Positions 8,150 through 58,043 are shown, numbered from the stretch's first letter. The stretch is 64,000 nucleotides of DNA from Deltaproteobacteria bacterium (GCA_020848905.1 JADLHG010000017.1:15429-79428), one strand, 5' to 3'. The notes: generated from the sequence alone by a model not told the origin. Program-made: numbers and translations.

Positions 8150-9097
8150 TCAGGCGGCGGCCTGGACGTCGGCGAGAATCGGCTTCGCGTCGGTGCCGTC
8201 CCCCTTCACGCAGCCGAGGTAGGTGAAGGGGTCCTCGAGGACGCGCACGGCAGAGTTGATGCCGTGCCCCGCGGTGAGGCCGTCATCGGCGCGCTCGTCG
8301 TAGGTGAAACGGATCGGCAGGCACTTCTGGATCACGATCTGCCCGTCCTTCACGACCGCCCGCTCCTCGATCCGTCCCACCATCATGAACAGCGACGCAG
8401 TCCCCCACTCGTAGAGGTGGTGGTAGCCCGGGGCCATCCCCACGCTCCCGAGGTTGGCGATGAAGATCGAGCAGTACATGGGGTCGAAGCGAATGAAGGA
8501 ACCGGGGAGGATGTTGTAGTAGTCCATCCAGCGGAAGAGGCGCACGCCGAGCTTGAGCAGGGGACGGGGGAGGCTGGTCAGGAGGTTGTATTCCTTGTCC
8601 GCCGAGGTCACCTTGTCCGAGCGCTCCTCCTTGATACTGCCGTTGATGCGGGCGCAGAGCTGCTCGAAGTTCTCCTCGTCGCGCGCCTCCATCTTGACCG
8701 CTACCAGCTTGGCCGCCTTGTTCAGCTTCTGCCGCTTCATGCTGAAGCTGATCCAGGTGCCCTTGCGCTGGTAGATGCGCTCGCCCTTGGTGAAGCGGTT
8801 CATGCTCGGGTTGTGCTTCATGCCGAACATGCAGGCCGCGACCAGGCAGTGGGTCACGTCGCAGTGGAACTTCGCCTTCGTGGCTTCGAGGTAGGCCAGA
8901 AGCTTCTCCGCGTCGACTACCGTGTCGAAGTACACCACCGACTCGTTCCGCGTGGGCATGATGTGGAACATCATGGTCCGGTAGGGATGGATCCGCGGAA
9001 TGAGCGTGGCGTCCGGGCGCGACGTCTTGAGGTTCAGCAGCACCCACAGCACGAACAGCACCCCGACGACGATGAGGGCAATCAGCATCTTCACCAC
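8150..9097 (-). CDS. membrane-anchored 2-oxoacid dehydrogenase E2 / CAT-fold acyltransferase-like protein
   Basis: 315 aa. N-terminal TM helix MLIALIVVGVLFVLWVLL. The C-terminal segment PIRFTYDERADDGLTAG...VLEDP aligns by eye to the E2 catalytic motif s-DHR-x-x-DG ... le-P. Confidence 0.75.
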   Translation of the reverse strand: MVKMLIALIVVGVLFVLWVLLNLKTSRPDATLIPRIHPYRTMMFHIMPTRNESVVYFDTVVDAEKLLAYLEATKAKFHCDVTHCLVAACMFGMKHNPSMNRFTKGERIYQRKGTWISFSMKRQKLNKAAKLVAVKMEARDEENFEQLCARINGSIKEERSDKVTSADKEYNLLTSLPRPLLKLGVRLFRWMDYYNILPGSFIRFDPMYCSIFIANLGSVGMAPGYHHLYEWGTASLFMMVGRIEERAVVKDGQIVIQKCLPIRFTYDERADDGLTAGHGINSAVRVLEDPFTYLGCVKGDGTDAKPILADVQAAA

Positions 9098-9201: not shown

Positions 9202-9705
9202 ATGCCGAGAATGAGCCCATTGATCGCACGCACCTGGTTCGCCCAGGATGGATCGCTGCACCTGGCGCTCGCGGGCGCCATCGACGAGACCTGTGACCTC
9301 GAGGCCGCGCTGGCGTCGATCGATCGCGACGTGGTGATCGACGTGTCGGCGGTGGACCGCATGAACTCCGTCGGCGTCCACCGCTGGATCACCACCCTCG
9401 ACCCGCTTTCGCGGCGGCACGCCGTGACGATCGAGGCCTGTCCGTATCCCATGGTGCTCCAGGCGAACGTGGTCGCGAACTTCTTCGGCGCGGCGAAGGT
9501 GGCCTCGTGTCTGGCGCCGTACTTCTGCACCGCCTGCCAGCAGACGCCCATGCTGCAGCTCTCCGCCGAGGAGGTTGGGGAGGCGGGAGGCGGTCCTCCC
9601 GAGAAGCCCTGCCCGAGCTGCGGCGGCGCGCTCACCTTCGACGAGCTGGAGAGCTACTTCGCGTTCCTCGACTCCGCGCGCGGGGCCACGCGGCGGCCGC
9701 GGTGA
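9202..9705 (+). CDS. STAS-domain (anti-sigma-factor-antagonist-like) protein with C-terminal CxxC...CxxC zinc ribbon
   Basis: LHLALAGAIDETCDLEAALASIDRDVVIDVSAVDRMNSVGVHRWI is a STAS-like pattern. The C-terminus carries CTAC...CPSC. ATG at 9202 or 9211. The TGA stop overlaps the GTG of the next gene (GTGA at 9702-9705). Confidence 0.65.
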   Translation: MPRMSPLIARTWFAQDGSLHLALAGAIDETCDLEAALASIDRDVVIDVSAVDRMNSVGVHRWITTLDPLSRRHAVTIEACPYPMVLQANVVANFFGAAKVASCLAPYFCTACQQTPMLQLSAEEVGEAGGGPPEKPCPSCGGALTFDELESYFAFLDSARGATRRPR

Positions 9706-12452
9706 AGGCGACACGGTCGCAGGAGCCGGCGCGCGCCGTGCTGGTGCTGGACGCGGAGGGGGCGGAGGGGCGTCCGCTCGCGGATAGCGTCGAGGTGGCG
9801 GGCTTCCGCTCGCAGGTGGTGCCGGCGTTCGATGAGCTGCAGCGCGCCTTTCGCGACGGGGCGGCTCCCCTCGCGGTCGTGGCCTACGAGGCGCTCTGGC
9901 CCGCACCGCAGCGCGCCCTGCGGACGCTCCGCGAGGTCTGTCCGGCCGCGCGGCTGGTCGTGGCCTACGCCGACGGCTCGCCGAGGATTGGCCTCGGCAA
10001 GCGCCTCTGGTCCGAGGGTCTCATCGACTACTGGGTGTCGCGGTCGGCCGGTCCGCGCGAGTTCGCCAAGCTGCTCACCCAGGCCGCGGCCGACCTGGCG
10101 GCGGACGACTCGGGGGCCACCTCGGAGCGACCGTCGCCCCCCGCAGCCGCCGGCTGGGGCGGAGCGCTGCGAGAGCTGGACCGGCTGGGCCGAGCCCTGA
10201 ACAACACGCGGCGGCTCGACGAGCTCCTGCGCGAGGTCCGGCGGCGGACGCGTTCGCTCGTCGAGGCCTACGTGGTGCAGGTGCTCCTCCACGACGAGAC
10301 GGCCCCCAAGCTCTTCAGCTTCCCCTCGGCACCCGTCCAGCACGAGGTGTCGTGGCGGCTCGTCGAGTCGGCCTGCGCGGCCCTGAGCGGCCATCTCGTC
10401 CGGCCCCTCGACCCGCTCGAGGTGGCGGCGTTCCAGAGCCCGCCGCTCGACGCCGCGAGCTCCGAGGCGGTCTCCGACGCGCTCTCCGCCCCGCCGCTGC
10501 ACGTACCGCTCTTCGCGCAGGGGGTGCTCGTGGGCTGCCTGAGCGTCCTGCCCTTCCCGGGCCGGCCCTGGCAACCCGAGCACGAGGCGCTGATCCGGCT
10601 TCTGGCCCATCAGCTTGCGGCGGCGCTCCGCGGCGTCGAGCTGCTCGCGGCCACGGAGGCCTCGGCCGAGGTGGACGAGCTGACGGGGCTGCGAAATCGT
10701 CGCGCGCTCTCCGCGCTCCTGCCGCAGGAGTGGCGGCGCGCCGAGCGTTTCGGCCTCGACCTCACGCTGCTAGTGATCGACGTCGACCGCTTCGCGGAGC
10801 TCAACGAACGGCTGGGCTATGCGACGGGCGACGAGATCCTGCGGCAGATCGCGACGCTCATCGCGAACCAGCTGCGCACGACCGATCACCTGATACACCT
10901 CGGGGCCGACCGCTTTCTCTGCGTGCTGACGGGCGAGGGACCGTCGGAGGCGGCGGTGGCTGCGGAGCGCGTCCTCCTGACCTTCAAGCAGCATCCGGTG
11001 CTGACCGATTCGCCGCTCGGGCCGGTGCACGTCGCCTGCAGCGCGGCCGTGGCCTCGCGTGCCGTGTCCGCGGCCAGCCAGCCCGAGGAGCTGCTCGAGC
11101 TGGCGGAAGCGGCGCTGCGGCGGGCCAAGGACGCGGGCGGAGGACGAACCGCGATCAGCCCTGCGCCGGCACGTCGGGAGGCCCGGGACACCGAGGAGAT
11201 CCAGATCGACGAGAAGCGCCGCGCCGCTCGCCTCGCCGCGGACCTGCCGGTGCGCTACCTCGAAATACCGGACCTCGAAGGCCACCTGACCGAGGCCCGC
11301 TCGATCAATATCAACGCGAGCGGCATCGCGCTTCTCGACCCGCAGGCGCGCTTGCGTCAGCACCACTACGCCCTGCTCTACGTCGAAGGCGCGCAGTCGC
11401 CGATCCTCGCCCGCGTGGTGTGGACCGCGGACAGCGGCGACGGGCCGAGGTCCGCGGGCCTCACCTTCCTGACCCCGGAGGAGCTCGTTTCGCGCGTGAG
11501 GGCCGTGGAGCGCGTGAGGTCCGCGCCCGTGGCGCTGGTGGTCACGGACAACCCGCGAACCTGGGAGCAGGTCGAGCGGGTGCTCATCGCCGCGCGCTAC
11601 CAGATGCTCGTGCTCAAGAGCGGGATGCCGTTGCCGAGCACCGAGGAGCTCTCGGAGTTCTCCCTGGTCGTGGTGGGGGAGAACGCGCTGCACTCCTGGT
11701 TCGGCGAGCGCCTGGCGGCGGTGCGCCTCCGGCTGCGTGGTCGCGCGCGCATCGTGGTGATCAACGAATCCGAAGACCGCGGGGAAGCGCTCCGGACGAT
11801 CGCTTCACACGAGATTCAGCACTTCGTGGCCCACAGCGACCGCTCCGACGAGGCGCTCTTCGCCACCCTGAACAAGTTGCTCGTGGGCGAGTACTTCGGC
11901 ATGCAGAAGTACCTGCTCTGGGGGACGAGCCCGAAGTCCTGGACCATCCGCAAGCGCGAGGACAAGGAGCAGGTGCTCGACGGGATCCGGCAGGTGGCGC
12001 GCGAGGTCTATTGTCATCCGCGCCTCTCCGACCTGCTCATCGCCGCGCTGGACGAGATGCTGATCAACGCCATGTACGGGGGAGGCGCCCCCGGACGGGA
12101 CGCCCCGGACCGGGTGACCGTGGAGTGCGGCACCGACGGACGCCTGCTGGCCGTCTCGGTGGTCGACGACCGCGGCAACTTCGCCTTCGAAGACCTCTAC
12201 CGGGCCCTCGACCAGGGGCTGTCGCGAGCCGCCGAGGGGATTCCGGGCGGCGCCGCGAGCGCGCGCATCGGTTTCCGGACCATGCTCGACTGTCTGAGCC
12301 AGCTGGCGATCAACGTCGAGCTCGGCCGCCGCACCGAGGTCATCGGCATCGTGGACCTGCGGAAGCCCTTCCGCGAGTACCGGCGGTCGATCCCCACGCT
12401 CGGTCTCTTCACCACGGCCGACAGCAAGAGTGACCCCCCGCAAGAGGGGTGA
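9702..12452 (+). CDS. multidomain signalling protein: pseudo-receiver, GAF, degenerate GGDEF (GADRF, RxxD I-site kept), PilZ, second pseudo-receiver, RsbW/SpoIIAB-like HATPase
   Basis: Trimmed to GTG 9702; 916 aa. DELTGLRNRRAL...VIDVDRFAELNERLGYATGDEILR...RTTDHLIHLGADRF is a GGDEF fold. RRAARL...NINASGIAL is PilZ-like. LIAALDEMLINAMYGG...AVSVVDDRGNF has the N-box/G1-like motifs of anti-sigma-factor kinases. Confidence 0.8.
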   Translation: MKATRSQEPARAVLVLDAEGAEGRPLADSVEVAGFRSQVVPAFDELQRAFRDGAAPLAVVAYEALWPAPQRALRTLREVCPAARLVVAYADGSPRIGLGKRLWSEGLIDYWVSRSAGPREFAKLLTQAAADLAADDSGATSERPSPPAAAGWGGALRELDRLGRALNNTRRLDELLREVRRRTRSLVEAYVVQVLLHDETAPKLFSFPSAPVQHEVSWRLVESACAALSGHLVRPLDPLEVAAFQSPPLDAASSEAVSDALSAPPLHVPLFAQGVLVGCLSVLPFPGRPWQPEHEALIRLLAHQLAAALRGVELLAATEASAEVDELTGLRNRRALSALLPQEWRRAERFGLDLTLLVIDVDRFAELNERLGYATGDEILRQIATLIANQLRTTDHLIHLGADRFLCVLTGEGPSEAAVAAERVLLTFKQHPVLTDSPLGPVHVACSAAVASRAVSAASQPEELLELAEAALRRAKDAGGGRTAISPAPARREARDTEEIQIDEKRRAARLAADLPVRYLEIPDLEGHLTEARSININASGIALLDPQARLRQHHYALLYVEGAQSPILARVVWTADSGDGPRSAGLTFLTPEELVSRVRAVERVRSAPVALVVTDNPRTWEQVERVLIAARYQMLVLKSGMPLPSTEELSEFSLVVVGENALHSWFGERLAAVRLRLRGRARIVVINESEDRGEALRTIASHEIQHFVAHSDRSDEALFATLNKLLVGEYFGMQKYLLWGTSPKSWTIRKREDKEQVLDGIRQVAREVYCHPRLSDLLIAALDEMLINAMYGGGAPGRDAPDRVTVECGTDGRLLAVSVVDDRGNFAFEDLYRALDQGLSRAAEGIPGGAASARIGFRTMLDCLSQLAINVELGRRTEVIGIVDLRKPFREYRRSIPTLGLFTTADSKSDPPQEG

Positions 12453-12467: not shown

Positions 12468-13775
12468 ATGCAGTTCGAGGGGCGCGAGGTTTTCGGGCCG
12501 TACGTGCTGTTGGACCGAGTGGGCGTCGGAGGGATGGCCGAGGTCTTCTTGGCCGCGCTGCGCGACGAGCCCGACGCGCCCTGGGTCGTGGTCAAGCGCA
12601 TCCTCCCCGAGCTCGCGTCGCGCCCGGACGTGGTGGAGATGTTTCTCGACGAGAAGCGGCTCACGTCGCTCCTCGTGCACCCGAACGTGGTGCGGCTGGA
12701 GGACTCGGGGGAGGTGGAGGGGGTGCACTTTCTCGCGCTCGAGTACGTCGATGGCGCCTCCTTGCGGCAGCTGCAGAAGGCGCGGCGTCGCCTCGGACTC
12801 CCCCGCGATCTGGCCTGCTGGGTCGTCTCCGAGGCCTGCGCGGGCCTCGGCTACGCGCACAGCCGCACGCTCACCTACTCGAGTCAGCCGCTGGACCTCG
12901 TCCACCGCGACATCAGTCCGCAGAACATCCTGCTCTCCAAGGCCGGTGCGGTGAAGCTGGCCGACTTCGGCGTGGCCCGGGCGGGCCCGCGACTGTCGCA
13001 GACCTCCCCCGGGCACGTGAAGGGCAAGTACTCCTTCATGTCGCCGGAGCAGCTCTTGCGGCAGCCGCTCGACCACCGCTCGGACATCTTTTCCATCGGG
13101 GCCGTGCTCTACGAGACGACGACCGGAGCGCCGATGGTGCGAGGGAGCAGCCCGCAGGAGATCTGCGACGCGATCCAGCTACGGCGCATCGTCCCGCCGG
13201 AGCAGCGTGTGGCGGACTATCCCCCGGCGCTCGGTCGGGTGGTGATGCGGGCGCTCGAGCCGCGGCCCGAGGACCGCTACGGCAGCGCCGAGGAGCTGCG
13301 GAAGGAGCTCGTCGCCCTCGTCGATCCCGAGCGGGGGAACGCGGAGAAGCTGGCCGAGCTGGTGGTCGCCGCGGCGGCGGGGCAAGGGCTCTCGGGGGTG
13401 TCGAGCGACCAGCTGGACCTCGCAACGGCCAGCGGTGCGGAGGCGGTGGCCAGGCGTTCCTTCTCCTCGCAGCGGTCGGGGTCGGGGCGCGGGGAGGCGC
13501 GCTCCGTGCGCCCGGCGACGGGAGCCACGGCCACCGGACCGCAGCCGCTCCCGACGCGAGCGGAGGCGAAGGCGTGGCAGGCCCCGGAGGAAGAGGAGGC
13601 GGCGCTCCCCACGGTGGATGCCTTCGATGACCTCACGGTCCCCGAGCGGAACCCGGCGGGAGCCGACGCGCCGGTCGCCCGGCGGATGGACTGGCGTCGG
13701 CCGGTGATCTGGCTGGTGGTGGCCGGCGGCGTGATCCTGGTGGCCGTGCTGGTCGCCGGTCGCTTCCTCCTCTGA
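12468..13775 (+). CDS. Ser/Thr protein kinase with C-terminal transmembrane anchor
   Basis: VGVGGMAEVFLA, VVVKRI, LVHRDISPQNILL, KLADFGVAR and SFMSPEQ. C-terminal TM helix VIWLVVAGGVILVAVLVAG. Confidence 0.9.
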   Translation: MQFEGREVFGPYVLLDRVGVGGMAEVFLAALRDEPDAPWVVVKRILPELASRPDVVEMFLDEKRLTSLLVHPNVVRLEDSGEVEGVHFLALEYVDGASLRQLQKARRRLGLPRDLACWVVSEACAGLGYAHSRTLTYSSQPLDLVHRDISPQNILLSKAGAVKLADFGVARAGPRLSQTSPGHVKGKYSFMSPEQLLRQPLDHRSDIFSIGAVLYETTTGAPMVRGSSPQEICDAIQLRRIVPPEQRVADYPPALGRVVMRALEPRPEDRYGSAEELRKELVALVDPERGNAEKLAELVVAAAAGQGLSGVSSDQLDLATASGAEAVARRSFSSQRSGSGRGEARSVRPATGATATGPQPLPTRAEAKAWQAPEEEEAALPTVDAFDDLTVPERNPAGADAPVARRMDWRRPVIWLVVAGGVILVAVLVAGRFLL

Positions 13776-45496: not shown

Positions 45497-46992
45497 GAGG
45501 CACCCGGCCCGGGCCGCGGCACGAGCCTGGCCTGCGATGGTTGCACCGTGGCGCTCGGCAGGCCCCCGAAGACGACCAATCGGGTGATGCGTTCTAGAAA
45601 GCTCCGTCGCGAACCCCCCCGGCCGAGGCTGAGCGAGGTCACCGCGGCGCGGTTCACGCGAACCATCGTCTCGCCCCCGCCCGGGCAGGGGACCAGGTAC
45701 CCGGAGAACTGGTGGAAGGCGAAGAGCTCGCCGCCCTCCCTGCCGAGGTAGAGCATGATGTGCCCGGGGAGGTAGAGCAGCACCACCCCGCGCTCGTTCG
45801 CGGCCTCGATCGCGGCGACCTTGGCGGCGGGGTCGAGCCGCGCCACGTCGATCTGCCGTGGCCCGCTCAGCGCCTGCTGGCGCGAGTTGCGCGGCAGACG
45901 CAGGCCGAAGGTGGCGAAGAGGTCCATGAGGAGGCGCGAGCAGTCGCGGTGGTTACCGGTGCCGCCCCAGCCGTAGGGCGTGTGCAGCAAGCGGAAGGCG
46001 GCCCGGTAGAGTGCCGCGCGCGAGAAGGGGGGCAGCTCGGCGCTCGCGGCGCGCGCCGGGAGGTGCGCCTCGACGAGGCCGGAGGGCGCCGGGGCGAGGA
46101 CGCGTAGCTGCTGCGCCTCGGTACCGAGGAGCGGCAGCGAGAGACCGAGGCCCGCTGCGCCGAGCAGGACCGGGGAGGAACCTGCCGAGAAGACCGCCGT
46201 CCGGTCTTCGTGGACCACGGCGCGCTCGCGGGGGCGGAGGTACTGCTCGAGCTGGTCTCGTCCGAGGGGCGGGGTGAGCGCGGTGGGGTCGACCCATCCC
46301 TCGGCGTAGGTGGACCAGGCGTAGACGAAGCGGCGGCCGCGGCGGAAGACGCGCACCGGCTCGCCGAAGCGGAGCTGGGCGCACTGAAGCTGATCGAAGT
46401 CCGTGTCCCCGGCCTTCTCGTAGAGCGGCTCGGCCGTCGGGTAGCAGCGAAGGGGGCTGCTGCGGAAAGCCACGCGCAGCTCGTCTGTGGGCTCGGCGGA
46501 CGCGAGCTCCGCGCGCAGCTCCTCGAGGAGCGCGGCCCGAGGAGGTCGTCCGTCCGCCTGCACGCGGCGGCCGGCGGCGATGGCCTCGGCGAGGCGACGC
46601 CACTGCTCCGGAAAGTAGCGGGCGAGGTCGCGCGGGGGGAGCGCGGGGGAGAGGAGGTCCCAGCGGCCGAGGGGCCAGCCCCCCTTCGAGAGCTGCTCGA
46701 CGCGACGGTTGTGCGCCTCGAGGTGAGCGGGATCGAGGAGCGCGAGCTCGGGCGCAGACACGCGCGTCAGCCAGTGCTCCGGGACGAGGTGCTCGGGGCG
46801 CTCGAAGGGGAGCACCGGCGGAGCGGGCGCGACGGCCGGGCAGGGGGGGAACTCGGCGCAGGCCCGCGAGGCCGGGCCGCGGGGGCGGCAGCCCGTGGAG
46901 GTGAGCGCGACGAGGAGCGCGAGCGAGGACGCGAGCCCGACCGAACCCCTCGGGGAACGGGGCCAGCTCACGCGAAGGCGGGGGTGGTCCAC
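45484..46992 (-). CDS. NlpC/P60 (C40) cell-wall peptidase lipoprotein with N-terminal accessory domains
   Basis: Lipobox LVALTSTGC. TPYGWGGTGNHRDCSRLLMDLF carries the catalytic Cys; LYLPGHIMLYLG carries the His. The GTG start overlaps the TPR gene end by 25 nt. Confidence 0.8.
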   Translation of the reverse strand: MDHPRLRVSWPRSPRGSVGLASSLALLVALTSTGCRPRGPASRACAEFPPCPAVAPAPPVLPFERPEHLVPEHWLTRVSAPELALLDPAHLEAHNRRVEQLSKGGWPLGRWDLLSPALPPRDLARYFPEQWRRLAEAIAAGRRVQADGRPPRAALLEELRAELASAEPTDELRVAFRSSPLRCYPTAEPLYEKAGDTDFDQLQCAQLRFGEPVRVFRRGRRFVYAWSTYAEGWVDPTALTPPLGRDQLEQYLRPRERAVVHEDRTAVFSAGSSPVLLGAAGLGLSLPLLGTEAQQLRVLAPAPSGLVEAHLPARAASAELPPFSRAALYRAAFRLLHTPYGWGGTGNHRDCSRLLMDLFATFGLRLPRNSRQQALSGPRQIDVARLDPAAKVAAIEAANERGVVLLYLPGHIMLYLGREGGELFAFHQFSGYLVPCPGGGETMVRVNRAAVTSLSLGRGGSRRSFLERITRLVVFGGLPSATVQPSQARLVPRPGPGASWVR

Positions 46993-49900
46993 AGGCCGCG
47001 GTAGAGGCGCGCGAAGTCGTCGGAGACGGCGAAGAGCATGAGGCGCGCCAGGGTGGGGTTCTGCGTCACGTCGGCCGCGGCGAGCCCGGCGGCGCGGGCG
47101 AGCTCCTCGACGGCGACCTTGGGGCTCCGGCAGAGGAGCAGGCCGACCAGGTCGGCGCGTTGGCGCTCCGCGGCGCGGTAGCTGGCCCAGGTACCGGAGG
47201 TGAGACCGGGTCGAGGCGTGTCCTCGAGCTGCTTGCGCACCTTCCGGGGCAGGTGGCGGTGGAGCTGCTTGCGGAGCTGCTGCACCTCCTCGTCGTCGGG
47301 GCGCGGGTTCAACGCGGCGTCGAGCAGCGTGGAGAGGTCGGGGTCGCGCAGCTGCTCGAGGAGCGCGCCAGCGGTCGCGGCGCTCGCCAGCGCGCGGCCG
47401 ACCCAGAAGCGGTAGGCCGGTTCGCTGTGGGCGTCGACGAGCGCGGGGGCCAGGCGCACGGCGACCGGCTGCTGGCCCACGGTGACCGCGGCGCCCGGGC
47501 CGCTCCCGACGCTTACGGCGACCGGGCCGACGCCAAGGCAGGTCGCGAGCCGCGTCGCAGCAGCGACCGCCGGGTGGGTCGACGCGAGGGGGCGTCCCGC
47601 AGGTGGCGCGTAGAGGGGACCCAGGTGCGGCGCGAGCAGCTCGAGGACCTCACGCACCGCGCGGAGCTCGGAGGGTAGCGCGATGCGGGCCACGTCGAGC
47701 GCCCCCGGCGGGAGGACCGCCCCTTCGAGGGAGCGGGCGTGCAGCGCCTCCTCGGGGCCCGCGGCACCGAAGAAGTCGAGCAGGGACCCGGCGCTCGCCG
47801 CGAGCTCCGCGTTGCCGAGCGCGTTCTGGGCGGCGACGAGGCCCCGATAGGCCTCGAGGCGTCCCGGGTCGCGCTGCAAGAGTTTGCGGAAGACGGCCAC
47901 GGCGTTTTCGGACTCGCCTTGCGCGGCGAGAGCCTGACCGTAGAGGAGCTGAGCCTCCTCGTGGTGCGGTTCCGCGTGAAGCGTCTCGCGGAGGTACTCG
48001 AGCGCCCGCGCCGGCTGGCGCGTGTGTTCGAGAAGCAAGCGAGCCACGACGACCCGCAACGGCAGGGCGACCGAGGGGCGCGTGGTGTTCTTGAGCAGCG
48101 ACTCCCCGAGCTCCACGATGCGGGAGAGCTCGTCGCGGGCCCGGTAGGCCTGGAGCAGCTCGGCGAGGGCCGCGGGCTGCATGGCCGCCTGTGCCAGCGC
48201 CTCGGTCTCGTACTGGCGACGGAGGTCGTCGTCGCGGAGACCGCTGCGGGCCACCTCGGCGAGCTGGGACATGGCCCAGACCTGCACGCTGGAGTCGTCG
48301 TCGGCGGCCACCTGTTCGAGGAGCGCGCGCGCCTCGTCCCACTGACCCGAGACGGTGGCCAGCTCGACCATGAGCCGCTTCGCGCCGAGGTCCTGCGGCT
48401 GCTCCTCGATGGCCTGTTCGAGCACGCGCCGAGCCGTCTTCACGTCGTGGAGGTGTCGGAGCCAGACCTCCGCTTGCCGCAGCCGCGCCGTGTGGCGCTG
48501 GTGGGTCTCGGTCGCGACCTTGGCCAGCCGCTCGAGCACGACCGTCGCGTCGGACCAGCGCTGCGTGGCGCAATGCAGGTCCGCGAGGTCCGACAGCGCC
48601 CCCACGTCTTCCGGGCAGAGGGCCAGGTACTCGATGAGCTCGTTGATCGCGCGCGTGGGGTCGTCCAGGTCGTCGCGCAGGATGCGCGCGTGCAGTCGTA
48701 AGAGCTCGGCTCTCTCGCCGGCCTCGGGCGTGGCGCGAATACGGCGAATGTAGAGGCGCGAGAGCTCCGCGTAGTCCTGTCGCAGTCGGAGGAGCCGCTC
48801 GGCGCGGCCGAAGGCCTCCGCGTGGCCCGGCTGCTCGGAGAGGGGCTGGGCCAGGCTGGCCAGGGCGCGGGCCGTGTCGCCCAGGCGCTCGGCCCAGAGG
48901 TCGGCCGCCCGGAGGGCGCAGCTCGTGCGGTTCTCGCCGCTCGCGCTGGCCTTGGCGAGCTGGTCGCAGACCGTGGCGAGCTCGGGCCAGTTGGACTGCT
49001 CCTCGGCGAGCTCCGCGAGGAGGCGGAGGGCGGGGACCGACTGGTCGTCAAGCCGCAGGCACTCCCGTGCGACGCGCGCGGCGGCCTCCGGCTGCTTCGC
49101 CACCACGTACGCCGAGGCGGCCGAGACCAGCCGCTGCGTGCGAACCACCGGGTCGAGCTCTAGGGTGGCCTGGTCGATGAGGACGGCCGCGAGGTCGGCG
49201 TGGCGCCCCGCACGCCAGAGCAGCCGCTCGAGCGCCCACAGCGTGGCCGTGTCGTTCGGGCGGCGATCGTGCGCCGCCAGCGCGGCGTGGAGCGCGTCGG
49301 CAGGTTGCCCCTCGCCGAACTCCAGCAGCTGCGCCGCCTCCAGGAGCAGCGCCACCGCGAGGCCGTCGTCGTTCGCCGCGCGCCCGAGAGCACCCAGCCA
49401 CGCGGCGAGGTCGTCGGCGTGCAGGGTGCGCCGGACGCGCGTCAGATCGGCGGAGAGGCGCGCGCTGCCGAGGACCTGCGCCACGGTCGAATACAGGCCG
49501 AGGTCGGGGGGCTCGTGAAGGTAGAGCTCCCGAACGCGCGCCAGCTCCAGCTGGAGGTGCGCCCTCTCCTCGGTGCCGCGGGTTCGTGCGGCCTGCTCGA
49601 CGAGGTGCTGCGCCAGCTCGTCCCACCGCTCCTGCCGGCGGTAGATGCGGAGGAGTCCTTGGTGCGGGCTCGCCATCTCCGGATAGCGCTGGGCGGCCTC
49701 ACGATAGAGCTGCGTCGCTTGCGTCAGATCCTCCAGATGGAGCTCGGCCACCTCGGCCGCGCGGCAGAGGGCGTCCGCCGCGGAGAGCGGGTCCGTCGAG
49801 GCGACGGCGTAGCGGCGCAGCACCTCCACGAGCTCGCGCCACTGCCCCGCCGACCGCACCAGCGCCTCGACGGCAGAGAGCGCCGGCATGAGCCCCGGAT

Positions 49901-52475
49901 CGTGGGCGAGCGCGCGCGTGTAGGCCTCGACCGCGGCGGGAGCCTGCCCGAGGTGCTCCTGATAGATGCGCCCGATGCGGCACAGGATCGCCCCCGCATC
50001 GCGCCGATCGGGGTCCGTCTCGAGCTCGTGGCGATGGAGGTCGATGAGCTCCTGCCAGCGGCCCAGCCGGTAGTAGATACGCCCCGCGGCGCGGATGGCG
50101 GCCACGTTGCGTGGGTCCTGCGTCAGGACGTCCCGGTAGATGCGCAGGGCCCGGTCGGGCTCCTCCAGAACCATCTCGAGCAGGTCCGCTGCGCGCAGGC
50201 GTCGGGATTGGGCCTCGGTCGCGTCGGTCGTGTCGTCGGCCTGCGCGAGCAGAAGCGCCACGAGGTCGACGGCCCGGCCCGCCTTCTCGTAGAGAGGAAC
50301 GAGCCGCAGCGCGGCCGTCCGCGTCTGCTCGAGACCGCGAGCGCGTTCGAGCGTTTCGATCGCCCGGTCGAGGGCCTGCAAGGGTCCGGCCTGGAGTTGG
50401 GCCAGCTCGAGCAGCAGGTGGTGCCGCGACTTGGGGTCGGTGCTGAGCTCGACGCGCTGCTCGAGGAGCTCGGCGAGGTCGTCGTACCGGCCGAGCTCGC
50501 GGAGGAGCCGGATGAGGCCCCACGCCGCGAGGTGGAGCGTCGGATGGAGCTCGAGCGCGCGTCGGTAGTAGGTGAGCGCCTCTTCCGGTCGTGCTAGGCG
50601 CTGGGTCAGGATCTCCGCCAGCTCGACGCAGCGAACGGCGCGGGCCTCGGCCGACGCCGTGCCCTCGGTCTCGGGGGCGTGGATCGCGAGGAGCGCCTCC
50701 CAGTCGCCGCGGAAGCGGTGGAGCGCGCCGAGCGCCTGCAGGGCAGGGAGGTAGGTCGGCACCGCGGCGAGGGCCTCGCCGTAGGCCGCGATCGCGCCAT
50801 CCACGTCGTGCGCGCGGCTCTCCAGCAGCCATCCGATGCGCGTGAGCAAGGCCGCCCGGCCCTGCGGGTCGGTGACCAGTCCGACGAGGTGCCGAAGCGC
50901 GGCCACCTGGTCGCCGAGCCGCCCCTTCGCCTCGTAGACGTAGGTCAGCCGCTGGACCGCGGCCGGGTCGTCGGGGAGCGTGCGCGTGGCGCGGGCGAGA
51001 TCCTTGGCGGCGGCCTCGAGGTCGCCGGTTCTCTCGACGTGCAGCGCTCCGGCGCGCAGCAGCAGTCTCCCCTCGAGCGTCGCGTCGGAGACCTGCGCGG
51101 CGAGGCGTTCGACGGCGAGGCAGGTGGGGGCCGCGGCGTCGGCACGCTCGTGGAGGCTAACCAGCGCGAGGAGCGCCGGTACGTTGGTAGGGTCGGCCTC
51201 GACGGCTCGCGCGTAGGTAGCTTCGGCCTGGGCGCGCTGGCTCAGCCGCGCCTCGCGCACGCTGCCCGCCTGGTAGAGGTAGAGCGCGCGTTCCTCGGCG
51301 GAGGAGAGCACCTCCGCAAACTGCTCGAGCCGCAGCGCGGCTTCCTCGAAGTGCGCGAGCTCCAGGTGGAGTGCCGCGGCGCTCGAGAGCAAGGGGGCGG
51401 ATCCCGGGTCCAGCTCGAGAGCCCGCTCCACCAGCGCGAGGGCGCTGCGCGCGTCGTGGCGCCGGTACCGCAGGAGGGCCGCCGCTTCCTGGAGCACCGC
51501 GACGCGCGTCTGGGCCTCTCCGCCGAGGGCGGCCTCGCGTTCGCAGAGCTCGAAGGCCTCGTCCACCTCTCCCAGCCGGAGCATGGCCCGGCGCACGAGC
51601 GGTACGAGCCACGGGCTATCCGGCCGGAGCTCGAGCGCCGCGCGCAGGTGCGAGAGCACGAGCGGTCCCTCCGCGCCGGCGCGCTCGGCCGCCGCCGCCG
51701 CCTCGATCCACATGAGCCCGGCGTGCTCCGGTTGCGCCTCGGCCAGCGAGACCGCTTCAGCCAGGAAGAAGCGCCGCGTCAGCTCGAGGCGCGCCGCCTC
51801 GACGAGCGCAGGTTCCGTGGCCCGCGGCGCGGGGGTGGGGACGCGCTGCTCGCGCCGCAGTATCACTCTCGGTCGGGGCGCCAGTCGGTCGCCCGAGACG
51901 ATGCTCACCTCCTCGAGCAGATCCTCCCCTTCGAGGAGCTCGATCTCCTCGGCGCCGGTCAGCGAAAGGCTCAGCACGTCGTCTTCGGTGGGCGCCACGT
52001 CCTCGATCGGAGCACGCCCCGACTCGAGAGAGCCCGCGCCTCCTCCGGTGGCTCTCGCGGCGGATGGGGCGAGGATCGGTCGCGCTCCGCCCGGGAGGCC
52101 GAGCGGGCTCGCCCCCTTGATCGTGGGGGGACCCTTGCTGCTGCTGCGTCCCGTGCGCAGGCCGCCGGTGCGACCCGTCGCGTCTGCCCGCCCGCCGCCA
52201 CGCGCCGCCGCGTCGCCGCCGCGCCGGCCGGTCGCGTCCCCTCGCTGGCCCGGCTTGGCGGTGGTCTCCGCGTCCGCCTTGTCCGACGCAGCTTCGGCGC
52301 TCGAACGCCCGACGGTCCCGCTCGTCACCTCGCGCGTCTTGGGTCGACTCGCCGGGGCTCCCTCTGGCCGGGCCGCGGGAGACTGGCCGCTCTGCGTTTC
52401 GGTCGGCGGCTTGGGAGATACGCCGAGACGCTCCCTGAGCCCGCGAATGTCGTCGTCGCCGTTGCCGTTGGTCAT
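46968..52475 (-). CDS. giant tetratricopeptide-repeat protein (1835 aa) with basic disordered N-terminus
   Basis: Trimmed to ATG 52475. Dozens of 34-aa A-x-x-x-Y/L...A-L-x-x-x-P repeats (for example EALTYYRRALELHP and AVEAYTRALAHDPG). The C-terminal ~300 aa is not TPR. Confidence 0.85.
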   Translation of the reverse strand: MTNGNGDDDIRGLRERLGVSPKPPTETQSGQSPAARPEGAPASRPKTREVTSGTVGRSSAEAASDKADAETTAKPGQRGDATGRRGGDAAARGGGRADATGRTGGLRTGRSSSKGPPTIKGASPLGLPGGARPILAPSAARATGGGAGSLESGRAPIEDVAPTEDDVLSLSLTGAEEIELLEGEDLLEEVSIVSGDRLAPRPRVILRREQRVPTPAPRATEPALVEAARLELTRRFFLAEAVSLAEAQPEHAGLMWIEAAAAAERAGAEGPLVLSHLRAALELRPDSPWLVPLVRRAMLRLGEVDEAFELCEREAALGGEAQTRVAVLQEAAALLRYRRHDARSALALVERALELDPGSAPLLSSAAALHLELAHFEEAALRLEQFAEVLSSAEERALYLYQAGSVREARLSQRAQAEATYARAVEADPTNVPALLALVSLHERADAAAPTCLAVERLAAQVSDATLEGRLLLRAGALHVERTGDLEAAAKDLARATRTLPDDPAAVQRLTYVYEAKGRLGDQVAALRHLVGLVTDPQGRAALLTRIGWLLESRAHDVDGAIAAYGEALAAVPTYLPALQALGALHRFRGDWEALLAIHAPETEGTASAEARAVRCVELAEILTQRLARPEEALTYYRRALELHPTLHLAAWGLIRLLRELGRYDDLAELLEQRVELSTDPKSRHHLLLELAQLQAGPLQALDRAIETLERARGLEQTRTAALRLVPLYEKAGRAVDLVALLLAQADDTTDATEAQSRRLRAADLLEMVLEEPDRALRIYRDVLTQDPRNVAAIRAAGRIYYRLGRWQELIDLHRHELETDPDRRDAGAILCRIGRIYQEHLGQAPAAVEAYTRALAHDPGLMPALSAVEALVRSAGQWRELVEVLRRYAVASTDPLSAADALCRAAEVAELHLEDLTQATQLYREAAQRYPEMASPHQGLLRIYRRQERWDELAQHLVEQAARTRGTEERAHLQLELARVRELYLHEPPDLGLYSTVAQVLGSARLSADLTRVRRTLHADDLAAWLGALGRAANDDGLAVALLLEAAQLLEFGEGQPADALHAALAAHDRRPNDTATLWALERLLWRAGRHADLAAVLIDQATLELDPVVRTQRLVSAASAYVVAKQPEAAARVARECLRLDDQSVPALRLLAELAEEQSNWPELATVCDQLAKASASGENRTSCALRAADLWAERLGDTARALASLAQPLSEQPGHAEAFGRAERLLRLRQDYAELSRLYIRRIRATPEAGERAELLRLHARILRDDLDDPTRAINELIEYLALCPEDVGALSDLADLHCATQRWSDATVVLERLAKVATETHQRHTARLRQAEVWLRHLHDVKTARRVLEQAIEEQPQDLGAKRLMVELATVSGQWDEARALLEQVAADDDSSVQVWAMSQLAEVARSGLRDDDLRRQYETEALAQAAMQPAALAELLQAYRARDELSRIVELGESLLKNTTRPSVALPLRVVVARLLLEHTRQPARALEYLRETLHAEPHHEEAQLLYGQALAAQGESENAVAVFRKLLQRDPGRLEAYRGLVAAQNALGNAELAASAGSLLDFFGAAGPEEALHARSLEGAVLPPGALDVARIALPSELRAVREVLELLAPHLGPLYAPPAGRPLASTHPAVAAATRLATCLGVGPVAVSVGSGPGAAVTVGQQPVAVRLAPALVDAHSEPAYRFWVGRALASAATAGALLEQLRDPDLSTLLDAALNPRPDDEEVQQLRKQLHRHLPRKVRKQLEDTPRPGLTSGTWASYRAAERQRADLVGLLLCRSPKVAVEELARAAGLAAADVTQNPTLARLMLFAVSDDFARLYRGLWTTPAFA

Positions 52476-52575
52476 CCGCCCTCGCCTTGGCCCACCATCA
52501 TAGCAGACAGCCGCGGGGGATCGGCACCTCGGGGGGCCCCGGGCGATGGCGCACCGGACGCCCACGTGCGAGGCG

Positions 52576-53526
52576 CTACGCGCGCTGCTTCGCCGCCTGA
52601 TCGCGCAGCTTCTCGAAGAGGCGCCGCTGCTCGTCGGAGAGGCTGCGAGGGACGACGATCTTGATCTGCGCGTAGAGGTCGCCGTGCGTGCCGTCGCGCT
52701 TCGGCAGGCCCTTGCCGCGGAGCCGCAGGCGCACCCCCGAGGCCTGCCCGGCCGGGAGACTCATTTGCACCTCGCCGTCGAGCGTGGAGACCGCCACCTT
52801 GCCGCCGAGGGCCGCGTCCCAGGCGTCGACCGGCGTCTCCACCACCAGGTCGTCCCCCTCCACGCGAAAGCGCTCGTGCGGCGCGATCTTGATCGTCAGG
52901 TAGAGGTCGCCACGCGTCTCCCGTCCGCCGCCGAGCCCTTGCCCCGCGAGGCGGATCCTTTCCCCGTCGCGGATGCCCTTCGGGATCTTCACCTCGTAGC
53001 GCTTGCGGCCGGTGGGTCCGGTCAGCTCGATCGATCGTTTGGCGCCGTGGAAGGCGTCCTCGAGCTCGACGGTGACGGTGCTCTCGATGTCCTGGCCTGG
53101 TCGGGCTTCTGGCACCTCCTCGCCCCCTCCGCCTCCGAAGAGATCCTCGAGGCGTGGCCCGCGTCGCCCTCGCCGTGGGCGTCCGCCGAAGAGTGTTTCG
53201 AAGAAGTCCGAGAAGTCGGCTCCGCCGAAACCCCCCGGCGCGCCGCGCACGTCCCACTGCGCCCCGCCGTTGCGGAAGTCCGGCGGCGGCTCGAAGGGCG
53301 CACCGTGCTTCCAGTTCGATCCGAGGAGGTCGTAGCGCTTGCGCTTCTCGGGGTCCTTCAGCACCTCGTAGGCTTCGTTGACCTGCTTGAACTTGGACTC
53401 CGCGTCGCCGGCCTTGTTCAGATCGGGGTGGTACGTGCGCGCGAGTCGCTTGTAGGCCTTGGAGATCTCCTCGGGGGGCGCGTTGCGCTTGACCCCCAGG
53501 ACCTTGTAGTAGTCGACGAACTCCAT
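52576..53526 (-). CDS. cbpA: DnaJ-class co-chaperone without zinc finger (CbpA-like)
   Basis: [34 protein letters not shown] is a J domain with HPD. A G/F-rich linker and DnaJ C-terminal domains follow. There are no CxxCxGxG repeats. Confidence 0.9.
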
Positions 53527-53554: not shown

Positions 53555-56146
<2,592 letters not shown>

Positions 56147-56197
56147 ACGATCCTCCATCGCCCCAGGGATCGTCGTCGTCCCCCGAGCCTCAGGACC

Positions 56198-56239: not shown

Positions 56240-57943
56240 TCAGGTCGCCAGCTCCTCGAGGACCAGCTTCAGGCGGGCGGCCCTTTCGGTCTGTCCCATC
56301 AGCGCGGCGAGCTCGTGCTCTTCCTGGACGAGCTGGGTGAAGAGCGCGAGCTTCTCCTTGCCCGGGATGCGCTGCCGGTACTTCTGGCGGGCGGATGGCG
56401 TGGAGAGGAGGAGCATCGCCTCGTCCACGAGCTGCTGGATCTTGGCCGAGGCCGTCGGGTTGGCCTGGTGGGCTGGCGAGCCCGGTTGATGGTCCGCCAT
56501 ACGCCGATGGTAGGCGGGGATCAGCGTGTCCGGGTCGGCGGTGTAGGTCACGCCGAGGCGCTGAAAGGCGTCCTGCACCTCCACGGCGCTCAGGCGCTCC
56601 TGGACCGACTGCGCGGTGGGCGGCCCGCCCGTGTGCGGGTCGAGCGGCAGGTCGAGGGCTCCCCCGGCGATGAGCAGGTGCACGACGCGCATCGTCTTGG
56701 GGCGGCCGAGGACGCTCACCGTGATGGCCTGTCGCAGGGGTCGCAGGCCATCGAAGATGGTGTGGGCGATGCGGCGCGTCTTGTCGTCGGGCACGAGGAG
56801 CTTGAGCTCCTCCGCCGCGTCGGCGCGCAGCAGGGGGTAGCGATCGTTGTACGGCTCGAGGAGCACCTGGAGGTCCTCGAGCCGCGCGCTGCGCAGGATC
56901 TCCTGGGCCAGCTCGACCATCAGGCGAGGCACCGAGACGGGATGGTGCTCGCCCTGCGGCAGCACCCCGGCGGTGAAATCGAAGGTCGCGCCGCTCCAGC
57001 CGAAGAGATCCTGCAGGCGCCGGTAGGTCTGGTGCGCGAGGGCGTGGTTCAGCCGCGCGCTGTCGAGGACCCCCGAGTCCACCATGGCCTGCCCGAGCTG
57101 GGTGCGGTTCGTGCGGGCCCAGCGCATCACGTCCGCGAGCTTGTTCGGCGTGACCAGCTTGGCCTTGAGCAGGATTTGCCCGAGCTGCTCGTCCTCCTTC
57201 ACCGGCGAGACGGTCACCTTCATCGGCACGCCGTTGCGGAACCAGACCGTCTTGGTGAAGACCTCTCCGCGCACCGTGAGCTTGCCGCGCGCGCGGGAGT
57301 GGGCCAGGTAGCGCATCAGGTGCACGAGCGAGGCGCGTTCCGGCGGCGGCTGGGGCGGATGCGAGTCCACCAGACCCGCGAGCGCACCCAGGCCGAGGCG
57401 TCCCGCGAGCTGACCCTTGAGGGGCGGAATGGCGCCGAGCGCGGGGAACTCCCCCGACGGAGGAACGCGATCGAGCGTGCCGCTCCAGAGCGCTTGCCCC
57501 GAGGCCACCTCGACCGCGCCCGTCGGGGCGGACAGACGCTCCACGGCACCCGTGGGCGTGCGATCGGCCGGGGCGTGTCCCGGGTCGCGCGCGGCGGCTC
57601 CGGGGGTGGAGTCGTTCGCGCTCACGATGGGGAAGGTGCCCGATTCCTGAGGTCCCGGCGCCACTCCCGTGAGTTGGTCCGCCAGGCGGCGGAGCGCCGA
57701 CGCCACGTCGGCGGCCACCTGAAGCCCCACGAGCTGTCCCGCCTTGTGGACCACCTCGCCGTCGAAGGGCCCGAGGCGCCTCGTTTCGACGATCACCTCG
57801 AAGCGCAGGTGGCCACGAAGCGCCGGGATCGCGTCGGGCTGCTCGGTCTGGAAACAGAGCGCACCGATCTTCAGGTTGGGTGCCTCGTTCGCCAGCTCTT
57901 GGCGGTGGGCAAACCAGATGATGCCGTCCCGGTACCAGGCCAT
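56240..57943 (-). CDS. DUF4388 / GspE-N-like protein with C-terminal degenerate J domain (HPD replaced by HQP)
   Basis: Trimmed to ATG 57943. GKLTVRGEVFTKTVWFRNGVPMKV is DUF4388-like. LGQILLKAKLVTPNKLADVMRWAR...LGQAMVDSGVL is T2SE_Nter-like. FQRLGVTYTADPDTLIPAYHRRMADHQP...LSTPSARQKYR is J-like. Confidence 0.65.
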   Translation of the reverse strand: MAWYRDGIIWFAHRQELANEAPNLKIGALCFQTEQPDAIPALRGHLRFEVIVETRRLGPFDGEVVHKAGQLVGLQVAADVASALRRLADQLTGVAPGPQESGTFPIVSANDSTPGAAARDPGHAPADRTPTGAVERLSAPTGAVEVASGQALWSGTLDRVPPSGEFPALGAIPPLKGQLAGRLGLGALAGLVDSHPPQPPPERASLVHLMRYLAHSRARGKLTVRGEVFTKTVWFRNGVPMKVTVSPVKEDEQLGQILLKAKLVTPNKLADVMRWARTNRTQLGQAMVDSGVLDSARLNHALAHQTYRRLQDLFGWSGATFDFTAGVLPQGEHHPVSVPRLMVELAQEILRSARLEDLQVLLEPYNDRYPLLRADAAEELKLLVPDDKTRRIAHTIFDGLRPLRQAITVSVLGRPKTMRVVHLLIAGGALDLPLDPHTGGPPTAQSVQERLSAVEVQDAFQRLGVTYTADPDTLIPAYHRRMADHQPGSPAHQANPTASAKIQQLVDEAMLLLSTPSARQKYRQRIPGKEKLALFTQLVQEEHELAALMGQTERAARLKLVLEELAT

Positions 57944-58043
57944 GGCGGTCCGCAGGAGCTCGAGTAGAAGCCCCCTCGTACCATCAGGGTGCCGTGTTTT
58001 CCAGGGGAAAGGGGGAGGGCCGGTTGGGCCCCCGCCACGGCCC

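Follow-up and report, generated by a model that had tools for sequence, protein, structure and literature searches.

Can a single polypeptide couple binding of cyclic di-GMP (c-di-GMP), a second messenger, directly to a partner switch of the RsbW/RsbV type? The question is raised by a gene at positions 9702-12452 (+) of a 64,000-nucleotide stretch of DNA from Deltaproteobacteria bacterium (GCA_020848905.1 JADLHG010000017.1:15429-79428), which we call the window and from whose first letter all coordinates are counted. A preliminary description, made from the DNA sequence alone, had read in the 916-residue product two putative c-di-GMP receptor sites and a partner-switching kinase module acting on a STAS protein encoded upstream. 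We confirm that this observation is real and non-random. The architecture is that of a partner-switching module with a fused c-di-GMP input, and it belongs to an uncharacterised family known mostly from metagenomes. The 916-residue protein joins a dead c-di-GMP synthase and a PilZ-type receptor to an RsbW-like kinase domain and probably links c-di-GMP to a protein-phosphorylation switch. On the best explanation of its sequence, it would be one of the members of this family, which is found in Myxococcota, that sense c-di-GMP without making it.

Domain architecture and putative c-di-GMP sites

The open reading frame (ORF) encodes 916 residues plus a stop codon and begins with GTG, its start overlapping the stop codon of the upstream ORF (GTGA). 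Every motif quoted in the preliminary description was located at the expected residues: RTTD at 392-395, GADRF at 401-405, RRAAR at 506-510, NASGIA at 538-543, DEMLINAMYGG at 784-794, and VVDDRGNF at 820-827. The domain order is a pseudo-receiver, GAF, GGDEF, PilZ, a second pseudo-receiver, and an RsbW/SpoIIAB-like GHKL domain, the same order as first proposed; it is borne out by Pfam searches of the protein and of 23 full-length relatives, by profile searches of the PDB, and by Foldseek. A word-indexed homologue search found a single full-length relative, but when the C-terminal 321 residues were used in an exhaustive HMMER search, the family proved far larger, with 1032 relatives and approximately 25 cluster representatives of 865-913 residues that share the layout. 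The fused family analysed below consists of 24 members, the window protein and the 23 full-length relatives, and relatives that share the fused architecture are known exclusively from metagenome-assembled genomes (MAGs) of uncultured organisms. Across these 24 members, Pfam detected GGDEF in 24, PilZ and HATPase_c_2 in 17 each (at E ≤ 0.01), and GAF in 7-8. One full-length orthologue, P0002, is 43% identical to the window protein.

The GGDEF-fold domain (residues 322-480; 10665-11141, +) matched Pfam PF00990 with a score of 99.5 bits against a cut-off of 23.8 (E 2e-28). Its active site reads GADRF (10902-10916) in place of the catalytic GG[D/E]EF, the second position being Ala and the fourth Arg. 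The I-site RTTD (10875-10886) is intact, and D395 stands exactly five residues ahead of GADRF, which is the canonical spacing. The dead signature and the preserved RxxD site had both been called correctly. R392 and D395 are present in 24/24 family members, also where the signature is dead, and in having RxxD five residues upstream of the signature the window protein matches PelD and SgmT, which are degenerate-GGDEF receptors of the I-site type.

The further claim that this architecture serves sensing rather than synthesis has to be narrowed. It fits the clade of the window protein and the other lineages in which the signature was lost, but not the family as a whole, in which 15/24 members keep Glu at the fourth signature position, nearly all of them as GGEEF or GGDEF. 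We therefore regard the fused family as ancestrally an active cyclase; the window protein belongs to a clade that lost the signature. In a neighbour-joining tree, degeneracy of the signature arose at least three times, and the window protein grouped with P0102, P0103, and P0104. Members of this clade share a dead signature (xxDRF or xGKKF) and an NxNxxG variant of the PilZ motif. The three relatives are 41-52% identical to the window protein and retain the c-di-GMP sites; that these sites persist at such divergence, next to a shared dead signature, points to selection for a receptor function and not to decay. Elsewhere in the family, the MAG JACPVI01 carries two paralogues of the ~900-residue protein (L004:4516-7230 and L006), each with its own upstream gene for a STAS/zinc-ribbon protein of the kind described below. 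The L006 paralogue has GGEEF (active) and the L004 paralogue EGAQL (dead), a pairing that suggests division of labour between enzyme and receptor.

The PilZ domain (11208-11492, +) was identified by Pfam matches of orthologues and by conserved motif residues. The best PilZ match among the family members had an E-value of 4.5e-8, and P0002 scored 30.5 bits against a cut-off of 22.5. The RxxxR motif is present as R506-RAA-R510 (11217-11231), where the preliminary description had placed it. Its second PilZ element, NASGIA, was two residues out of register; the true motif is N536-INAS-G541 (11307-11324), which has the form NxNxxG rather than the canonical [D/N]xSxxG, with Asn538 in place of Ser. 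Aligned relatives read DxSxxG at this site, and Asn occupies the canonical Ser position in 4/24 members. R506, R510, and G541 are conserved in 23/24. PixB of Myxococcus xanthus also lacks the PilZ Ser and yet binds c-di-GMP in vitro (PMC8316039), so the NxNxxG variant is not disqualifying.

Of the remaining domains in the N-terminal and central parts of the protein, GAF (residues 172-309; 10209-10628, +) scored 28.7 bits against a Pfam cut-off of 22.4 (E 2e-6). The N-terminal pseudo-receiver (9729-10091, +) gave weak receiver matches when a profile of the 23 orthologues was searched against the PDB, with NtrC1 at E 0.06, and its assignment is correspondingly weakly supported. Glu63 (9888-9890) lies opposite the acceptor Asp of NtrC1, and Glu is found at this site in 19/24 members. 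For the second pseudo-receiver (11523-11906, +), which directly precedes the GHKL domain, we used an alignment of 72 sequences from the wider family, mostly stand-alone relatives. The resulting profile picked out receiver domains of known structure (E 3e-6 to 1e-3), and Foldseek matched the CheY-like proteins TadZ and CheY4. Here the phospho-Asp position is occupied by Gly659 (11676-11678); Gly stands at this position in 19/24 fused members, and Asp in 32/72 wider-family members. Neither receiver-like domain has a phospho-acceptor Asp at the end of β-3, as the preliminary description had stated for the first of them.

The RsbW/SpoIIAB-like GHKL (Bergerat-fold) domain (11934-12416, +) was identified by Foldseek, by Pfam matches in the family, and by a PDB profile search. 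It contains an N box (DEMLINAMY, 12051-12077), a G1 box (VVDDRGNF, 12159-12182), and an eroded G2 box (ASARIGFR, 12255-12278), all on the plus strand, and E785, N789, D822, G825, and G857 are invariant in 72/72 wider-family sequences. An AlphaFold2 (AF2) model of residues 501-916 had a mean predicted local distance difference test (pLDDT) score of 60.6, with values mostly of 50-87 in the receiver-GHKL part. Foldseek searches with this model returned LvrC (9qih), SpoIIAB (1til, 1tid, 1th8), RsbW (6m36, 6m37), SiaB (6kko), and UsfX. LvrC was the best match overall (E 8e-9). Template-modelling (TM) scores normalised to the target were 0.62-0.78 for single-domain SpoIIAB, RsbW, and SiaB chains, and 0.68-0.78 for 1til, 1tid, 1th8, 6m36, and 6m37, each at a Foldseek probability of 1.0. 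A profile restricted to the GHKL domain found GHKL proteins exclusively in the PDB (E 0.03-0.9), with the N, G1, and G2 boxes aligned; single-sequence phmmer searches of the PDB with the C-terminal 315 residues or with the STAS protein gave chance matches only. The best HATPase_c_2 match among the 24 members had an E-value of 5.7e-8, and P0002 scored 26.7 bits, at about the cut-off of 27.4.

Following the GHKL domain is the sequence PTLGLF (residues 898-903; 12393-12410), where remote homologues have KSFN[IV]F at the C-terminus. The final Phe recurs throughout the wider family, and F903 is present in at least 90% of members. This C-terminal motif might be a docking or dimerisation tail.

The STAS/zinc-ribbon partner and a wider two-gene module

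The gene immediately upstream (9211-9705, +) encodes a protein of 164 residues, for which AF2 gave a model with a pLDDT of 89.4. A STAS domain spans approximately residues 1-100 and is followed by a C-terminal zinc ribbon (CxxC...CxxC; Cys106, Cys109, Cys134, and Cys137; 9526-9621, +), each Cys of which is conserved in 65-66 of 67 homologues. Although the Pfam STAS match was below threshold (E 0.07), Foldseek matched the first ~100 residues to the anti-sigma antagonists RsfB, SpoIIAA, Haliangium 4hyl, and RsbV, as well as to MlaB, and the identification of this gene as encoding a STAS protein was therefore correct. Ser53 (codon 9367-9369, +) lies in the motif N-S-x-G-V at the N-terminus of a helix comprising residues 53-69 in the AF2 secondary structure, and Ser53 and Gly55 are each present in 67/67 homologues. 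By motif comparison, we take Ser53 to be equivalent to the phospho-Ser of SpoIIAA and RsbV (DSxGLG; Ser58 in SpoIIAA).

The preliminary description had proposed profiling the co-occurrence of the two genes, and the pair does recur. Of 12 close loci examined by tblastn, all from uncultured Myxococcota-type MAGs, 11 have the STAS gene as the immediate upstream neighbour of the large gene; in two of the 11 (L010 and L011), the partner is just a 300-residue receiver-GHKL module. A STAS/zinc-ribbon homologue was also found within 4 kb in 46/80 remote loci, usually directly downstream on the same strand. Conservation of the gene pair thus strongly ties the STAS protein to the C-terminal receiver-GHKL module. 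The sole close locus without a STAS/zinc-ribbon gene is L002:9824-10897 (P0095, GCA_034680565.1). There, sequence homologous to the end of the PilZ domain continues for ~180 nucleotides upstream of the called start, and the gene may be what is left of a fused protein after truncation.

Receiver-GHKL and STAS/zinc-ribbon genes form a widespread two-gene unit. More than 543 confirmed stretches matching the receiver-GHKL module were found in GTDB species-representative genomes, mostly from Myxococcota, with some from Oligoflexia and SAR324; Oligoflexus tunisiensis is among the species represented. Stand-alone receiver-GHKL proteins are ~320 residues long, have the canonical G2 box GGAGLGLY, and often carry Asp at the receiver acceptor position. 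Neither the module nor the STAS/zinc-ribbon protein corresponds to a named family in NCBIfam or to a family in Pfam, and PADLOC had no defence-system match for the gene pair and no model for either protein. The module is found fused to GGDEF without PilZ (P0138, P0128, P0130), to PilZ at its N-terminal side (P0110, P0099) or C-terminal side (P0207), to a canonical receiver, to an MFS transporter, to HisKA-HATPase_c, and to Pkinase. Fusion to c-di-GMP domains has occurred repeatedly and independently.

Neighbouring genes add to this picture. A cluster of REC-GGDEF-EAL proteins (REC denotes a receiver) neighbours the module in 17 of 91 loci compared. In one such locus, a 979-residue REC-GGDEF-EAL protein (L104:945-3884, -) is encoded divergently upstream of, and next to, a stand-alone receiver-GHKL/STAS pair, with a gene for a PilT-like ATPase (L104:1-902, -) on the same divergent side; equivalents of these two genes occur in 17 and 15 loci, respectively. 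The REC-GGDEF-EAL neighbour is a link between the module and c-di-GMP that does not depend on fusion, and possibly a link to type IV pili as well.

Hanks-type Ser/Thr kinases are the other recurrent association. In the window, such a gene (12468-13775, +; Pkinase E 8e-33) starts 16 nucleotides downstream of the 916-residue gene. A promoter and terminator scan gave background-level results and found no terminator-like site between the two genes, and the kinase may be an associated component encoded in the same operon. Hanks-type kinases were found within 4 kb in 17/80 remote loci and directly upstream of the module in at least 9/80. In approximately 10 loci the STAS/zinc-ribbon domain forms the N-terminus of a Pkinase protein, and in P0179 Pkinase is fused N-terminally to the receiver-GHKL module. 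Apart from the window gene and P0179, examples include L096:1667-3928 and genes at ~2600-3800 in L101, L130, L136, L146, L147, and L167. The Hanks-type kinase may be a third component of the system, either as the target of the STAS protein or as an alternative kinase for it. The window kinase (12468-13772, +) also matched many PADLOC models for PD-T4-6 (best E 4e-63), which probably reflects generic kinase homology and is not evidence of phage defence.

A putative c-di-GMP-gated switch and its alternatives

How might these parts work together? We regard it as an even question whether the 916-residue protein acts as a c-di-GMP-gated partner switch. This mechanism is favoured because the I-site, the PilZ Arg and Gly residues, and the ATP-site residues of the GHKL domain are conserved, and because the protein is paired with a STAS protein containing an invariant Ser. 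In such a switch, c-di-GMP made by other cyclases would bind to the RxxD I-site of the dead GGDEF domain, to the atypical PilZ domain, or to both. By analogy with LvrC, the resulting change would be relayed through the Asp-less receiver directly ahead of the GHKL domain and would alter binding of the STAS/zinc-ribbon protein, the product of the translationally coupled gene upstream, by that domain, probably with phosphorylation of Ser53; in this step the pairing is established by genomics, and the chemistry is predicted. A downstream target would then be acted on either by the STAS/zinc-ribbon protein, free or phosphorylated, or by the GHKL domain once freed. We infer from sequence the binding of c-di-GMP, the relay through the Asp-less receiver, the kinase activity, the phosphorylation of Ser53 or sequestration of its protein, and the downstream target. 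Most family members keep GGEEF, and in these a single polypeptide would both produce and sense c-di-GMP, giving a self-contained local circuit.

A broader proposal follows the same lines. Receiver-GHKL and STAS/zinc-ribbon proteins might constitute a signalling module, hitherto undescribed, that needs no sigma factor and has been wired repeatedly to c-di-GMP domains and Hanks-type kinases. The GGEEF members would then be complete c-di-GMP circuits in cis, in which one polypeptide synthesises c-di-GMP, senses it through its own PilZ domain and I-site, and responds by phosphorylating a Ser of a dedicated STAS protein, and the window protein would be a receptor-only derivative. We advance this proposal tentatively and consider it somewhat more likely to be wrong than right.

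Several results weigh against a c-di-GMP-gated kinase switch. The window protein itself had no match to Pfam PilZ (PF07238) at E ≤ 1, the canonical PilZ Ser is absent and replaced by Asn, and the PilZ part of the AF2 model had pLDDT values below 50 and was unusable. Because of the missing Ser and the failed Pfam match, binding of c-di-GMP by this PilZ domain is less secure than the preliminary description implied, although the domain is supported in orthologues. The HATPase assignment shows the same division: it is supported by the fold in Foldseek and by Pfam matches in 17/24 family members, but the window protein scored just 14.5 bits for HATPase_c_2 (E 0.036), below the cut-off of 27.4. The G2 box, GGAGLGLY in stand-alone relatives, is ASARIGFR in the 916-residue protein, and its first Gly is replaced by Arg855; Gly is found at this position in 3/24 fused members compared with 63/72 wider-family sequences. 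With this box eroded in the fused proteins, it is uncertain whether the GHKL domain acts as a kinase, and it may bind but not phosphorylate. No PP2C phosphatase or sigma factor was detected among the genes scanned within ~10 kb, and neither was a conserved neighbour among the related loci. The switch visible at the locus is incomplete, and with no sigma factor or PP2C phosphatase nearby a complete switch of the RsbW/RsbV type is not established there, although both genes may lie elsewhere in the genome. Finally, GAF and the Ser/Thr kinase encoded alongside offer other routes of input.

Would a classical anti-sigma system account for the locus? In that case, the GHKL domain would sequester an unlinked alternative sigma factor, the STAS/zinc-ribbon protein would release the sigma factor as an anti-anti-sigma factor, and c-di-GMP or another input would merely bias the competition, so that the output would be transcription and not STAS signalling. 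The best single-domain structural matches are indeed the anti-sigma factors SpoIIAB, RsbW, and UsfX, the partner resembles SpoIIAA, RsbV, and RsfB, and the top match, the receiver-Bergerat protein LvrC, is a proposed receiver-regulated anti-sigma factor (PMC13269768). The SpoIIAB-SpoIIAA and RsbW-RsbV pairs of Bacillus are alike in the fold of the Ser-kinase/anti-sigma GHKL protein and in having an adjacent STAS protein with an equivalent conserved Ser. In the window, however, receiver, PilZ, GGDEF, and GAF domains share one chain with the kinase domain, whose G2 box is eroded, the Pfam HATPase_c_2 and STAS matches are sub-threshold, and the scanned genes include no sigma factor or PP2C phosphatase. 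Leptospira LvrC has the same two-domain receiver-GHKL arrangement, but its receiver is canonical and is phosphorylated on Asp53 by LvrB (PMC13269768), whereas the acceptor position here is Gly659 and c-di-GMP domains are fused upstream as inputs; overall superposition with LvrC is also poor (TM-score ~0.3), so it is the domain folds and not their arrangement that match. No sigma-factor gene is present in the scanned neighbourhood or in the gene clusters common to related loci, the recurrent neighbours are instead Ser/Thr kinases and c-di-GMP enzymes, and the partner's extra, conserved zinc ribbon is something that anti-anti-sigma factors do not need. We therefore think an anti-sigma system unlikely.

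A reversed flow of information, from switch to cyclase, can also be considered. As in the SiaABCD system of Pseudomonas aeruginosa (PMC8457831, PMC7647112), in which a kinase/phosphatase pair of the partner-switching type is coupled to a GGDEF cyclase and SiaB resembles the GHKL domain, unphosphorylated STAS/zinc-ribbon protein would bind to the GGDEF domain and activate it and the fused GHKL kinase would inactivate the STAS protein. PilZ and the I-site would then provide product feedback, and the window protein would be a dead decoy or scaffold. Most family members do keep GGEEF along with RxxD, and SiaB was among the Foldseek matches. SiaC is phosphorylated by SiaB and dephosphorylated by SiaA. 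In P. aeruginosa, SiaC binds directly to the cyclase SiaD and so activates it (PMC8457831), and the cyclase HsbD is an interaction partner of the STAS protein HsbA (PMC5085249). SiaABCD differs, however, in that its components are separate proteins, signals flow from the switch to the cyclase through binding of SiaC to the SiaD stalk, and PilZ is absent; the GGDEF domain in the window is dead. That domain is not a SiaD equivalog, as its score for NCBIfam NF038266 is 95.8 bits where 290 are required. STAS/GHKL pairs of this kind are widespread without an attached GGDEF domain, and the catalytic signature was lost independently at least three times while the whole architecture and the partner were retained. 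Control of the cyclase by the switch seems improbable to us.

We give equally little credence to the idea that the window protein is a pseudo-sensor or scaffold that binds neither c-di-GMP nor ATP and is regulated through GAF or the adjacent Hanks-type kinase, for which the STAS protein may itself be a target. GADRF, NxNxxG, and ASARIGFR have eroded together in the window clade, the Ser/Thr kinase gene lies just 16 nucleotides downstream, and Pkinase fusions and neighbours recur with the module. Nevertheless, RxxD, RxxxR, the PilZ Gly, and the GHKL Glu, Asn, Asp, and Gly residues are kept across this clade at 41-52% identity to the window protein, and such conservation would not be expected of unused sites.

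With a c-di-GMP-gated switch as the preferred reading, how new is it? No fusion of PilZ or GGDEF to an anti-sigma kinase was found described in the literature searched, of which coverage was incomplete. The novelty claimed in the preliminary description holds to this extent, for a fusion within one polypeptide, but couplings between separate proteins have already been described in SiaABCD and HsbA-HsbD. HsbR-HsbA-HsbD of P. aeruginosa (PMC5085249) and SypE-SypA of Vibrio fischeri (PMC10120452) are alike in having receiver-containing RsbW-like kinases that act on a STAS protein, in showing that STAS output is not restricted to sigma factors, and, for HsbA, in interaction with a cyclase (PMC5085249). 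HsbR and SypE differ in that neither is known to be fused to GGDEF or PilZ, and their STAS partners are not known to have a zinc ribbon. Both also contain a PP2C phosphatase domain and a receiver that can be phosphorylated. SgmT of M. xanthus, as it is cited in another report (PMC8316039), resembles the window protein in carrying a degenerate GGDEF receptor of the RxxD type on a kinase, but it is a His kinase and not a Ser kinase of the RsbW type. PixA has PilZ directly ahead of a receiver but no output domain (PMC8316039). In the RsiG-sigma WhiG system, c-di-GMP controls an anti-sigma/sigma complex, but the fold is unrelated and there is no STAS partner (PMC7005675). Among the fusion partners of PilZ that Galperin and Chou list are REC, GGDEF, EAL, HD-GYP, MCP, CheC, and the Ser/Thr kinase Pkn1, but no RsbW-type kinase (10.1101/814665).

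Genomic setting and biological meaning

Solely from the distribution of relatives of the 916-residue and STAS genes, we would place the host among the Myxococcota. G+C content is ~71% across the window. Just upstream of the STAS gene is a divergent gene (8150-9097, -) for a protein with a catalytic domain like that of 2-oxoacid dehydrogenase acyltransferases (Pfam E 3e-14), whose G+C content at codon positions 1 and 2 (0.58 and 0.38) is markedly below that of its neighbours. Elsewhere in the window, genes on the minus strand (46968-52565, 56240-58159, 53555-56158, and 52576-53526) include a 1865-residue ORF without an assigned function and genes for a DUF4388 protein, ClpB, and DnaJ. The window ClpB is at most 63% identical to proteins from species-representative genomes, which indicates a host without a close sequenced relative; its matches were spread over many phyla, and ClpB gave no information on taxonomic placement.

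The specificity of c-di-GMP outputs, or "local signalling", is a long-standing question. If our reading is true, an I-site or cyclase, a PilZ domain, and an RsbW-like kinase in one chain, with a dedicated STAS substrate encoded by the neighbouring gene, would be a hard-wired case of it, and two purified proteins would suffice for a direct test of the coupling. A large and unnamed receiver-GHKL/STAS-zinc-ribbon gene pair in Myxococcota and their relatives has also come to light, and the Ser/Thr kinases that recur with it suggest that signal transduction in myxobacteria has a new branch.

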